From Escherichia coli (GTDB taxonomy: Bacteria; Pseudomonadota; Gammaproteobacteria; Enterobacterales; Enterobacteriaceae), in NCBI RefSeq assembly GCF_016903815.1, contig NZ_CP069973.1: a stretch of 64,000 bases of DNA; one strand, written 5' to 3'. Under the pieces are notes generated by a model. The model was not told the origin of the DNA. It searched no databases and was given only the letters and a program-made list of their open reading frames with translations. A program made the position numbers and the translations under genes. This document shows positions 29,291-53,950 of this stretch, one piece after another (the first letter of the stretch is position 1; each line of letters starts with the position of its first letter).

Positions 29291-29317
29291 ATTCCCGCTG
29301 TGGCCCACAGCGGGAAT
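29291..29317. repeat. Near-perfect 13-bp-arm palindrome between yedF and yedK
   Basis: attcccgctgtgg-c-ccacagcgggaat. Confidence 0.7.
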
Positions 29318-29392
29318 ATCGTTGCCTCTCTATCACATAGATTTAACCCGCCCCCTCTCCTATTCTTTTCAGTGTGACCTCAGGAGGTTTCT

Positions 29393-29819
29393 ATGTGTGG
29401 ACGCTTTGCCCAATCCCAAACGCGTGAAGATTACCTTGCGCTTCTCGCGGAAGATATTGAACGCGATATTCCCTACGATCCCGAACCTATTGGCAGATAC
29501 AACGTCGCGCCGGGAACCAAAGTCCTTCTGCTCAGTGAACGTGATGAACACCTTCATCTGGATCCGGTTTTCTGGGGATATGCTCCCGGATGGTGGGATA
29601 AACCGCCGCTGATTAACGCCCGCGTAGAAACTGCCGCAACCAGTCACATGTTTAAACCGCTCTGGCAACATGGTCGGGCAATCTGTTTTGCCGATGGCTG
29701 GTTTGAGTGGAAAAAAGAAGGCGACAAAAAGCAGCCTTATTTTATCTATCGTGCTGATGGACAAGCTGTTTTTATAGCCGCGATAGGTAGCACACCGTTT
29801 GAGCGTGGTGACGAAGCCG
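29393..29819 (+). pseudogene. yedK: yedK (SRAP / abasic-site-processing protein) truncated after about codon 142
   Basis: ORF 29393-29890 matches YedK MCGRFAQSQTREDYLALLAEDIERDIPYDPEPIGRYNVAPGTK...IGSTPFERGDEA, then diverges into an unrelated 23-codon tail at the IS-remnant junction; full-length YedK is about 222 aa as I recall. Confidence 0.8.
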
Positions 29820-30101
29820 GAAGAAGTTTTTGTAAGCCCGCTCAGGGTCTTTCAGTGACTGTTGCAATGGCTGTGAGGGCGAATCTTTAAGCCATTGCGT
29901 TTCAGTGGCATTTTTCCACTCAACCAACCAGGAAGCCATTTTCCCGTAAGGGATGTATTTATTACCGGCCTCATGATTCTCATTCTGAAGCGCCAGAGCA
30001 CGATTGAAAACGAAACGACATGCGCCTGCGAAGCGCCTCATTTCACGCTCCTGTTGACCACCTGGTCTTAACCGGAATTTGAATGCCTGTAGTCGTTTCA
30101 T
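29820..30101 (-). pseudogene. tnpB: tnpB N-terminal fragment (IS605 OrfB / TnpB-family)
   Basis: Only about 95 N-terminal residues are recognisable; RuvC-like and zinc-finger regions are absent. Confidence 0.7.
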
Positions 30102-30123
30102 GGGCCAAATCATACTTTGGCCT

Positions 30124-30481
30124 ATGAAAAAAGAAACCGATATCCGACGCGGAAGGCATTGTGTTTTCCTGAAGCATGTTCACCTAGTCTTCGTTACTAA
30201 ATACCGACGTCAGATTTTTGACCATGACGCGACAGAAAAACTACGCACTTACTTTTCAAATGTATGTGCTGATTTTGAAGCTGAACGGGTTGAAATGGAT
30301 GGCGGACCAGATCACGTCCATTTGTTAATTAACTATCCTCCCAAACTGGCGATATCCAGTCTGGTAAACAGCCTCAAAGGCGTATCGAGTAGGTTACTGC
30401 GACGAGATCGACCAGATATTGCAGTCAGGTATTACGACAAAGGCGTTTTGTGGAGTCCTGGCTATTTTGTCAGTAGCTGCA
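30124..30481 (+). pseudogene. tnpA: tnpA (IS200-type Y1 transposase), probably C-terminally truncated
   Basis: HUH motif HVHLL and a tyrosine in GYF are present; the C-terminal tail after VSSC is unrelated to the family; truncation is inferred from recalled family sequences. Confidence 0.6.
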
Positions 30482-30804
30482 TCTTAACGTATCAACTAGA
30501 TTTAATAACAACGATATCCGTACCTAACCGGATATCTAATGTCATAAGCATCCCTTTAATTATCCCCTCAACCTCTTGTAACTTTCCCACTCTTGAGCTC
30601 CACATAGTCCAAACGCCGGATGCAAAAAAATCACACGTGCATTTCTGAAATTGTGATGGAGGAAGATAGTATCAATTATATGTGCTTAGAAACGTCCCCG
30701 ATTAGCGCAGAAGTCACCGGATTGTTCAGACTCAAATAGGTTGAGTATGCCGTATTTATTTTCCAAAATAAAAATCGATGCTGTTGCTCCTTCATAAAAT
30801 ACTT

Positions 30805-31602
30805 TTACTCTCTGGACGCTTTTCTTAGCTCTCTTGGTGTTATCTTAAAACGATTATGGAACCTTTCAGTAAAACGAGAAGGACACTTGTAACCATTTTC
30901 CCTGGCAATCTCGCTGATGGGTTTTACTGTCGTTTGTATAGCAGACAACGCATTATTTAACCTCACGTCGTCCAATATACTTTGAAAACTTACTCCCTCG
31001 CTTGCCAGACGGCGATGCAATGTGGAAACAGAAATGTAGAGATATCTCGCTACCTTGTTTGCTGTCCATTTTGTTCCAGGTTCGGATAGCATTAGGTTAT
31101 AACAACGACTTATTAATGATTGTTTACTATCTGATAAAAGTAAACAATTAACATGATGTGCTCCTAATGAAAGTAGAACGCCCATTGCTAAGTGTTCCTG
31201 AATTTGCGTTGAGAAGCCTCGGGAAATAGATGTTTTTAGTTGCTCCCAACAATATATTAACTCGGGGTTCTGAGGTAAGCAGAAACCTGTCGTGTTACGA
31301 ATTTGATCAGTTATCGCATAAAATTTTTGAAACTTTTCAATTAGATCAATGGGATAATAAAGCATTTCTGCAAGATAAAGACCTGCTTCTGGATAATTCG
31401 CAATATAAAATTCATATCCACAGGGAAATAATATTATCTGATTATTATCAACAGTTAGACTATGCGTCTCCCAATTGATAACTTTTTTTCCCTGACGGAT
31501 ACGACATAAAGCTGGCATAAGAGGCTTAACCCTGTGAATCTCATGATGTTTATGCATCCGTATTTCTTCAATCTTTAGGTTAGTCTTATCTTTTGCCAGC
31601 AT
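30805..31602 (-). CDS. ybcM: AraC-family transcriptional regulator (YbcM-like)
   Basis: ORF 265 aa with a C-terminal AraC-type HTH ([40 protein letters not shown]); resembles the YbcM of the K-12 DLP12 prophage as I recall it. Confidence 0.75.
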
Positions 31603-31611
31603 ACTCTTACC

Positions 31612-32163
31612 CTACTTTATCTCATAAACTGGTGTTATCTCAGCGGTTGCAATTTTATTGGCATTAAGCATATAACCAACTAACGCTCCGCTGGAATTAG
31701 AATCCACAGGAATTTTATCAGTTTTTAGAGCCCATACTTTAAACTGGTAATGATGGGGTTTATCTCCTTTGGGAGGACATGCTCCACCAAATCCTGCATA
31801 ACCAAAATCATTTCGGCCTTGAACAGCACCAGTCGGAAGTTTTGTACCATCACGTCTTCCTGCATCAGCGGGCAAATATGTTACAGTTGCTGGAATATTA
31901 GCAACAGTCCAGTGCCACCATCCACTGCCTGTAGGAGCATCTGGATCATACACAGTTACGGCAAAGCTTTTGGTGCCTTCAGGAGCACCAGACCAGGTTA
32001 ATGAGGGCGATGTATTACCACCTTCACACCCAAATCCAGAAAATACATGAGACGTTGTAAGTTGCTCTCCTGTTTTTATTTCATTACTAGTGACCTGAAA
32101 TGCTGCGGCCTGCGCAGAAAATGTTATGAATGCCAATACACTTGAAACGATAAGTTTTTTCAT
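31612..32163 (-). CDS. ybcL: PEBP/UPF0098-family periplasmic protein (YbcL-like)
   Basis: ORF 183 aa with signal peptide MKKLIVSSVLAFITFSAQA and PEBP motifs (DPDAP, GYAGFGGACPPKGDKPHHYQF). Confidence 0.8.
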   Translation of the reverse strand: MKKLIVSSVLAFITFSAQAAAFQVTSNEIKTGEQLTTSHVFSGFGCEGGNTSPSLTWSGAPEGTKSFAVTVYDPDAPTGSGWWHWTVANIPATVTYLPADAGRRDGTKLPTGAVQGRNDFGYAGFGGACPPKGDKPHHYQFKVWALKTDKIPVDSNSSGALVGYMLNANKIATAEITPVYEIK

Positions 32164-32331
32164 AAAAACCTCATTGTTGTGACCTATCGTTATTTTATTT
32201 GATGTGCCTTGATCTCATTATGCATAAAGGCGCAATGATCGCGCAAATGCAATCATAATTATAAAGGTGCCCCGAACATTAGCCATAATATGCACAAATC
32301 AGATTCCTGTTATCTCAAGGATAATTATTTT

Positions 32332-32664
32332 TTAATGCGGTGCACTTCGTGACAACAAGTTAATGACTAACACACCGGCACAAATCAACATCATGCCTAT
32401 GATAGCTGGCAGGTCCAGTCGTTGACCAAAAAATCCCCAGGAAAGCAAACTAATCAGAACGATACCGACGCCTGACCAGATAGCATAAGCAATCCCTGTA
32501 GGTATATAAGCCAGCGTCTGAGCTAATAACCAGAATGATGCACAATAGCAAATAATTGTGCCAACAGAGGGCCATAACCGTGTAAACCCCTCTGAAAACT
32601 TCATTAAGGTTGTACCAATGACCTCTGCAAGTATTGCGCCACCAAGATAAATATAAGGGTTCAT
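32332..32664 (-). CDS. emrE: Small multidrug resistance (SMR) efflux protein EmrE
   Basis: ORF 32332-32844(-); protein from MNPYIYLGGAILAEVIGTTLMKFSEGFTRLWPSVG is 110 aa and near-identical to EmrE, including the conserved Glu14. Confidence 0.88.
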   Translation of the reverse strand: MNPYIYLGGAILAEVIGTTLMKFSEGFTRLWPSVGTIICYCASFWLLAQTLAYIPTGIAYAIWSGVGIVLISLLSWGFFGQRLDLPAIIGMMLICAGVLVINLLSRSAPH

Positions 32665-33007
32665 AGCATATTCTTTCCTGTTCATACTGGAGAGAATTGT
32701 ACTACAGTTTGAACACAACTCACCGTTTTCATCCTGGTGTATGTGTATCCAGGGGGCTCTGGCGTGGCAAGAGATAAAGGCAGGAACAATAATGATCAGA
32801 AGGAACCCCAGGCTAACGAATGAGTTCACTCTTCCTGGGAGCAAAGCGAAGACAAAACATGTTATCGCGTTTACGGATCGTGGATGGCAGAAAACTTTCA
32901 GGATCAGGTATCCATTTTAAACCAGAAATTGAGTGAGTTTGCCCCATCCATGCCCCACGCTGTGGGACCGGATATAATAAACAAGCATAGTCAACAGGTT
33001 ACAAAAC

Positions 33008-53252: not shown

Positions 53253-53528
53253 GTGGCTTCCATTTCCATCAGATGTCCTTCCTGCTCCGCTACTGAAGGC
53301 GTGGTGCGTAACGGCAAAAGCACTGCCGGACATCAGCGCTATCTCTGCTCTCATTGCCGTAAAACATGGCAACTACAGTTCACTTACACCGCCTCTCAGC
53401 CCGGTAAGCACCAGAAAATCATTGATATGGCCATGAATGGCGTCGGATGTCACGCCAGTGCACGCATTATGGGCGTTGGCCTCAACACGGTTTTACGTCA
53501 CTTAAAAAACTCAGGCCGCAGTCGGTAA
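53253..53528 (+). CDS. insA: IS1 InsA
   Basis: ORF 91 aa [66 protein letters not shown]. Confidence 0.95.
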
Positions 53529-53950
53529 CCTCGCGCATACAACCGGGCAGTGATGTGATTGTCTGCGCTGAAATGGACGAACAGTGGGGCTACGTCGGTG
53601 CTAAATCACGTCAGCGCTGGCTGTTTTACGCGTATGACAGGATACGGAGGACGGTTGTGGCGCACGTCTTCGGTGAACGCACTCTGGCCACACTGGAGCG
53701 TCTTCTGAGCCTGCTGTCGGCCTTTGAGGTCGTGGTATGGATGACGGATGGCTGGCCGCTGTATGAATCACGCCTGAAGGGAAAGCTGCACGTTATCAGC
53801 AAGCGTTACACTCAGCGCATTGAGCGACATAATCTGAATCTGAGACAACATCTGGCAAGGCTGGGACGGAAGTCACTGTCGTTCTCAAAATCGGTGGAGC
53901 TGCATGACAAGGTCATCGGGCATTATCTGAACATAAAACACTATCAGTAA
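53447..53950 (+). CDS. insB: IS1 InsB (expressed as InsAB' fusion by -1 frameshift)
   Basis: ORF 167 aa ...[110 protein letters not shown]. Confidence 0.93.

Follow-up and report, generated by a model that had tools for sequence, protein, structure and literature searches.

The transposition of IS200/IS605 family elements requires a TnpA protein with an HUH motif and a tyrosine, two subterminal hairpins and cleavage sites. The function of TnpB depends on its RuvC and zinc-ribbon domains and on a guide RNA, the source of which is the 3' end of tnpB together with the right end of the element. The prototypes of the family, IS605 and IS608, are both from Helicobacter pylori. The order of the two genes is divergent in IS605, IS200 has a hairpin in its tnpA leader, and IS608 targets the tetranucleotide TTAC. 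In IS608, TnpA forms a dimer with active sites in trans, each pairing the HUH motif of one monomer with the tyrosine of the other; this tyrosine, Y127, is the catalytic residue and is borne by helix alpha-D (PMC3597680). The element of interest here is IS609 (genes insP and insQ in K-12), full copies of which have divergent tnpB and tnpA genes and a palindrome at the start codons.

We analyzed a 64-kb stretch of Escherichia coli chromosomal DNA (hereafter, the window), in which an original prediction had placed an internal fragment of an IS200/IS605 family element, with neither gene intact and probably immobile, at positions 29820–30481. This description was correct, and both ends of the element are gone. 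We consider it highly likely that the fragment is a non-functional, twice-deleted relic of IS609 that has decayed in place beside yedK. The element is known, as is this kind of decay, and the partial status of yedK and tnpB (the truncated versions of which are denoted yedK' and tnpB') had already been marked by the PGAP annotation, but that of tnpA' had not.

Identity and genomic context of the fragment

Comparison of full-length IS609 with the whole window gave one significant match, extending from position 29817 or 29819 to position 30480, with 95.8% identity over 664 bp (E=0); the other matches in the 64-kb window were short (E≥0.018). The predicted coordinates were correct to within 1–3 bp. 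In a megablast search of 5,426 complete E. coli genomes, the 662-bp fragment lay end to end within the interior of full-length IS609 copies, the genes of which are named “IS609 family transposase” and “RNA-guided endonuclease InsQ/TnpB” by PGAP; tnpA of the reference copy, from the O157-type strain 472, is named “IS200/IS605-like element IS609 family transposase”. Taking a nucleotide identity above about 90–95% to a named IS609 copy as the mark of IS609 origin, we assign the fragment to IS609, in agreement with the predicted membership of its ORFs in the IS200/IS605 family. Over the 662 retained bases, identity to the copies in strain 472, K-12 DH1, C6 and E8 is 95–96%, and the divergent genes and the start-codon palindrome of the full copies are both kept. 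The remnant differs from the 1748-bp IS609 in the absence of both ends, of TnpB residues 95–402 and of TnpA residues 125–143, including Tyr135. Its allele also has an ATG start codon in place of GTG for tnpB', and a downstream ATG for tnpA'. No intact element of the IS200/IS605 family was found in the 64-kb window. A search of the rest of the genome for an intact copy had been proposed with the original prediction; other IS609-like copies are usual in carriers, with two to three matching places per record.

The full-length IS609 copies in DH1 (ydcL-ydcO locus) and in E8 and C6 (yedK locus) have the same premature TGA in tnpA, at the position corresponding to 30394–30396 in the window, where both the window and the O157-type copy have TTA. 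The tnpB gene of these three copies is intact, at 402 aa. The sharing of this stop codon between two loci indicates either that a tnpA-defective copy moved in trans or that the stop codon spread by gene conversion. We also observed tnpB-only relatives of IS609, with no divergent tnpA, on many Escherichia, Salmonella and Klebsiella plasmids (e.g. NZ_CP099884.1 and NZ_CP092076.1); these relatives display about 80–94% identity, and the match ends at the tnpB start codon (query position 141–153).

Around the fragment, the sequence of the window is 100% identical to that of strain 7/2 and many further isolates. The gene order at the locus is fliD-fliS-fliT-amyA-yedD-yedE-yedF-yedK'-[IS609 fragment]-ybcM-ybcL-emrE-fliE, and three features are already annotated there by PGAP: a partial SRAP-family gene, a partial HTH protein and a 174-aa transposase. 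The features defined in this study are listed in Table 1. Strain 7/2 has an IS200C copy between yodD and yedP (a 711-bp difference) that is absent from the window.

Table 1. Features of the IS609 relic and its junctions, in window coordinates.
Feature	Coordinates	Strand	Description
yedK'	29393–29818	+	Codons 1–142 of an SRAP-family gene (222–223 codons when intact)
tnpB' read-through tail	29772–29818	-	15 codons plus stop, antisense to yedK; not TnpB-derived
tnpB'	29819–30101	-	Codons 1–94 of IS609 TnpB (402 aa when intact) plus one base
Inverted repeat	30096–30129		14-nt arms TTTCATGGGCCAAA and TTTGGCCTATGAAA, 6-nt spacer; spans both start codons; native to IS609
tnpA'	30124–30480	+	119 codons, corresponding to IS609 TnpA residues 6–124 of 143; last 19 residues deleted
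HUH motif of TnpA'	30313–30321	+	His-Val-His (CAC GTC CAT); retained; read from the sequence
Right deletion junction	30473–30480		8-bp repeat GTAGCTGC, shared, in the earlier layout, by tnpA and the porin signal-peptide remnant
tnpA' read-through tail	30481–30648	+	55 codons plus stop; first three bases, ATC, are the last trace of the porin gene

Three other regions of the window call for comment. The genes ybcM (30805–31602), ybcL (31612–32163) and emrE (about 32332–32664) adjoin fliE in a block at 30805–32670. Their identity to the copies beside ybcN in K-12-type and O157 genomes, a region that we take to be the DLP12 prophage, is about 85%, and they are accompanied by a porin gene in E. coli 536. 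The block resembles the remnant of an old prophage at the yedK-fliE site. The annotation of strain 7/2, shifted by the 711 bp of IS200C, places an IS1 copy at 53253–53950, flanked by truncated versions of an HD-domain gene and of hchA; the window has ORFs of 91 and 167 aa there and a 231-aa ORF at the position of hchA, an agreement of position and size only. This suggests an IS1-associated deletion, if the placement based on strain 7/2 is correct. Finally, a tRNA-Asn gene (61784–61859) is followed by ORFs of 308 aa (62010–62936) and 287 aa (63130–63993, at the end of the window), at the positions of which the annotation of strain 7/2, with the same 711-bp shift, has a frameshifted integrase gene and ybtS; the region from 61784 to 63993 is presumably the start of the yersiniabactin high-pathogenicity island.

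Truncation of tnpB and yedK

The tnpB' product retains the N-terminal region of TnpB alone, which matches the Pfam family HTH_OrfB_IS605 (E=1.6e-16). Full-length TnpB has OrfB_IS605 at residues 162–277 and a Cas12f1-like TNB domain at residues 304–370, both absent from the window, so the RuvC-like nuclease domain is missing, as had been predicted, and no intact gene for a TnpB nuclease remains. The original prediction also had TnpB stopping after about 98 aa; the truncation itself stands, but the homology covers 94 codons and is followed by 15 codons of yedK antisense. PGAP annotates tnpB' as a pseudogene for a partial “helix-turn-helix domain-containing protein” (29811–30101, minus strand).

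With respect to the TnpB/omega-RNA (OMEGA) nucleases, the minus-strand piece encodes the genuine N-terminus of such a protein, but the RuvC region, the zinc-ribbon/TNB domain, the tnpB 3' end and the right end of the element are all lacking. DNA comparison revealed no match in the window to the guide-RNA region of IS609 (tnpB 3' end/right end). Rfam scans of the region and of full IS609 yielded no guide-RNA or other RNA family; as even the full copy gave none, it is the DNA comparison only that establishes the loss of the guide RNA. To judge from its sequence, the locus is not a functional TnpB/guide-RNA system, and neither nuclease nor guide activity would be possible there.

On the other side of this junction, the reading frame of yedK' continues after codon 142 with 23 foreign codons, up to a stop codon at 29890. 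Its product matches positions 1–138 of the 214 positions of the Pfam SRAP profile. Alignment with the genes of C6, E8 and 536 indicated that the left deletion had removed yedK codons 143–223, the C-terminal third of the gene, including the codon for His160. The predicted loss of the yedK 3' end was therefore correct, and PGAP also describes yedK' as a partial pseudogene without a C-terminus. His160 is an active-site residue of YedK (PMC9436759). YedK is very probably inactive in all carriers of this allele.

Truncation of tnpA upstream from the catalytic tyrosine

The tnpA' product matches Pfam Y1_Tnp (E=2.7e-33) over profile positions 2–106 of 121, whereas the full copy covers all 121, and a Pfam search gave no family match for the 55-codon tail. 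In an alignment with solved TnpA structures, the HUH motif of TnpA' falls on their dhvhll/dhihll segment. Homology to IS609 at the DNA level ends after ...CAGTAGCTGC at 30480, corresponding to Cys124 of IS609 TnpA and to codon 119 of the window. In alignments with IS608 TnpA (2A6M, E=1.4e-10), TnpA' ends at chain residue 115, whereas the full-length IS609 TnpA (143 aa) aligns through residue 133, with Y135 of IS609 (RQYIEQQ) opposite Y127 of IS608 (KQYIENQ). The catalytic Tyr135 lies 11 residues past the end of the TnpA' homology and has been deleted. Similarity to TnpA had been predicted to be lost after the catalytic tyrosine region; it is instead lost before this residue, and the remnant is thus more defective than initially thought. 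No full-length tnpA ORF with an intact end hairpin was found at the locus. TnpA' therefore resembles IS608 TnpA, to which it is only distantly related in sequence, through the HUH core, but it lacks the alpha-D helix and the tyrosine, and the remnant lacks all the DNA sites of the IS608 mechanism.

PGAP annotates positions 30124–30648 as an intact 174-aa “IS200/IS605 family transposase” (WP_001347174.1). This protein is a truncated TnpA without the catalytic tyrosine, fused to 55 unrelated codons, and its gene should be flagged as a pseudogene. All the carrier rows inspected have this reading frame open, but this is no evidence of function, because divergence between carriers is only about 0.7% when one cluster of substitutions is set aside.

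The start codons and their hairpin

The start codons of tnpB' (ATG, 30101–30099, minus strand) and tnpA' (ATG, 30124) are divergent and separated by 22 bp, confirming the predicted spacing and IS605-type layout. In the IS609 references, as annotated by PGAP, the starts are 7 bp apart, with a GTG for tnpB and a tnpA ATG 15 bp further upstream; this upstream ATG is ATC in the window allele.

In the window, O157 and AVS0717 alleles, plus-strand (tnpA-sense) RNA of the inverted repeat spanning the two start codons folds into a hairpin with 14 perfect pairs (-19.6 kcal/mol, z=-5.7). Five stem substitutions separate these three IS609 alleles, and all of them keep the pairing (C:G to U:A, A:U to G:U, G:U to G:C and C:G to U:G), whereas the same substitutions produce mismatches in the minus-strand hairpin. 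This pattern suggests that an RNA hairpin may hide the tnpA start codon in IS609, in a manner reminiscent of the leader hairpin of IS200. The inner stem is not conserved in distant relatives from a Klebsiella plasmid (76% identity) and a Plautia symbiont plasmid (79% identity), with which only the outer TTCAT/ATGAA part, forced by the two start codons, is shared. The inner stem is therefore specific to IS609, and the structural support comes from a few substitutions within this element.

Absence of the element ends

Positions 1–952 and 1617–1712 of the IS609 reference (a 1712-bp slice) had no match in the window, and the shared end motif GCCCTGAAGGACG gave no matches there with up to two mismatches allowed. 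Both ends of the element are thus missing, as had been thought certain for the tnpB side and probable for the tnpA side. A check for residual subterminal hairpins, proposed with the original prediction, identified none adjoining the fragment: no hairpins comparable to those of the element ends fold at its borders.

Only the HUH motif survives in the window from among the requirements for transposition and for TnpB function, and the remnant fails three of the five defining features tested for a working IS200/IS605 element. Because it has no ends, it could not be moved even by TnpA from other IS609 copies. We infer that it can neither excise nor insert, nor be mobilised by TnpA in trans. The remaining ORFs are most likely decaying pseudogenes, at a locus that does nothing. 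A promoter scan of positions 29300–30900 detected no promoter-like (sigma-70-like) site, a weak negative result.

Insertion and deletion history of the locus

The empty state of the locus is found in E. coli 536, which has an intact yedK (222 aa), a spacer of about 500 bp, a porin gene annotated as ompC, and ybcM-ybcL-emrE-fliE, with no IS609. In the full-insertion state, found in C6 and E8, a 223-aa yedK is followed by a full IS609 (1748 bp in C6), the same spacer, a porin scar and ybcM. IS609 has tnpB towards yedK in these strains, the orientation of the window fragment, and the porin gene is reduced to its first 14 codons (MKKLTVAISAVAAS), joined to the sequence upstream from ybcM. The empty site of 536 reads CCTGTTTG/ATAAGCC (slashes indicate junctions), and the occupied site of C6 reads CCTGTTTG/TTGACATCC...CACCGG/ATAAGCC. 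In C6, IS609 thus lies exactly between TTTG and ATAA, with nothing duplicated relative to 536. On the top strand of the element, the insertion is 3' of a TTAT that overlaps the yedK stop codon, and the right end is ...ATGTCAA. The C6 layout therefore follows the IS200/IS605 style: the target is a tetranucleotide (TTAT here, as against the TTAC of IS608) and is not duplicated, and the right end terminates in TCAA.

The window differs from the full-insertion layout by two simple deletions. The left deletion (1211 bp) extends from yedK codon 143 to tnpB codon 95, joining yedK ...GACGAAGCC to tnpB GGAAGAAGTTTTT..., and the parental sequences display an imperfect GAAG.A..TTTTT similarity at this junction, with one ambiguous G. 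The right deletion (669 bp) extends from tnpA codon 120, in the numbering of the window allele, to the porin remnant, with an exact 8-bp repeat at the junction. C6 has CAGTAGCTGC/GGAGG on the tnpA side and CTGTAGCTGC/ATCTTAACGT on the porin side, and the window has CAGTAGCTGC/ATCTTAACGT. The sequence from 30484 onwards is the ybcM-proximal flank, which is matched by E. coli 536. The porin remnant of C6 ends in GCATC/TTAACGT, and the presence of the same porin scar, ATC/TTAACGT, in the window (30481–30490) indicates that the window allele has the same ancestor as those of C6 and E8. An old insertion followed by deletion had been predicted, and is directly visible in the full layout in C6 and E8 and in the derivation of both window junctions from this layout by simple deletion.

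These comparisons show that IS609 inserted 3' of the TTAT at the yedK stop codon, such that its tnpB end faced yedK and its tnpA end faced the porin gene. The porin gene was deleted, leaving its first 14 codons, and the lineage of the window underwent the further deletions of 1211 bp and 669 bp. For the mechanism, the junction sequences suggest that both these deletions may have occurred via replication slippage or illegitimate recombination at short repeats. TnpA- or TnpB-mediated deletion was also considered, and was set aside because both junctions fall within short repeats, away from the element ends and from the TTAT site.

We counted the junctions in the 5,426 complete genomes with 120-bp junction-specific queries that cannot be satisfied by joined separate pieces. 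The left junction (yedK'/tnpB') was present in 1110 genomes and the right junction (tnpA'/porin scar) in 1108, indicating that the two deletions travel together; no single-deletion intermediate was seen among the 5,426 complete E. coli genomes. The left end of IS609 beside the yedK-side flank was found in 1097 of the 5426 genomes, versus 668 for the uninterrupted yedK/right-end junction.

E8-type copies of IS609 have an internal deletion of about 100 bp between the repeats CATCCTCCAC and CATCTCTCCAC (locus coordinates about 1709–1760). The right-end hairpin region is lost as a result, as is the 3' end of tnpB, and the TnpB annotated by PGAP is 387 aa long and overlaps yedK. This deletion constitutes another decay step at the yedK locus, and is likely to account for an (uncounted) part of the gap between 1097 and 668.

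Substitutions and alternative explanations

The copies in C6 and E8 are cousins rather than ancestors of the window fragment: a TTA codon of the window is replaced by TGA in their tnpA, and the divergence between their IS609 and the fragment is about 4%. Codons 1–142 of yedK are noticeably more similar between these strains and the window than the IS609 part is, as judged by eye rather than by counting. Taken together, these differences make it likely that some gene conversion has occurred or that the IS sequence has had a history of its own.

The window allele has nine to 10 private substitutions within positions 30073–30195 (123 bp), and only one elsewhere in the fragment (540 bp). Three synonymous changes in a row form part of this cluster, as do changes in the start-codon hairpin that preserve pairing, and strain AVS0717, which has the second carrier allele, has the usual IS609 sequence at these positions. 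A search for a donor in complete E. coli genomes yielded matches of at least 99% identity at the yedK locus only, the next-best matches displaying about 90–92% identity. From its sequence, the cluster looks like a short conversion patch, which may have come from a diverged functional relative.

The apparently imported patch, the absence from the window of the tnpA stop codon of C6 and E8, and the greater divergence of the IS609 part than of yedK (by eye, uncounted) would also be expected if the fragment had arrived already truncated, for example imported by recombination along with the ybcM-ybcL-emrE segment, or if it stemmed from an independent insertion unrelated to the full-length yedK copy. 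We nevertheless consider such an origin very unlikely. The position and orientation of the fragment are those of the full-length copy, both its junctions are simple deletions of the full-copy layout, the porin scar is shared, and the two junctions occur together in the same approximately 1,110 genomes. Moreover, transfer of the whole allele by homologous recombination would be compatible with decay in place, and would leave the identity of the element unchanged.

The substitutions specific to the deleted lineage comprise 12 non-synonymous and eight synonymous changes. Those in tnpA' shared by both carrier alleles comprise seven non-synonymous changes (including Y to D, L to R and E to G) and two synonymous changes. 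This pattern fits relaxed constraint, with the proviso that the numbers are small. The shared changes, some of which are non-conservative, also weigh against the retention of TnpA' as a working protein that binds end hairpins or forms dead heterodimers, damping other IS609 copies. In a TnpA dimer with trans active sites (PMC3597680), a tyrosine-less subunit could in principle poison the dimer, the HUH motif is present, carriers have an open frame annotated as a protein, and these genomes usually have other IS609-like copies (two to three matching places per record); however, the reference ATG is mutated and the start codon differs between the carrier alleles, no promoter-like site was found in 29300–30900, the tail has no family match, and an open frame is expected by chance at such low divergence, all of which makes retention most improbable. 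If it were nonetheless true, TnpA', which occurs with identical junctions in about 20% of complete E. coli genomes, would represent the reuse of a transposase remnant to inhibit transposition.

Implications

The reading that we favor, that of an IS609 relic decayed in place beside yedK, has little import for the element itself beyond tidy annotation, as there is neither an RNA-guided nuclease nor a mobile element at the locus. The locus provides a clean worked example of stepwise IS decay, with the empty site, the full insertion and the doubly deleted relic all present in public genomes. In roughly a fifth of the complete E. coli genomes (1,110 of 5,426), yedK is cut at codon 142 and the abasic-site crosslinking protein is probably lacking, a truncation of relevance to studies of the handling of abasic sites by SRAP/YedK in natural isolates.
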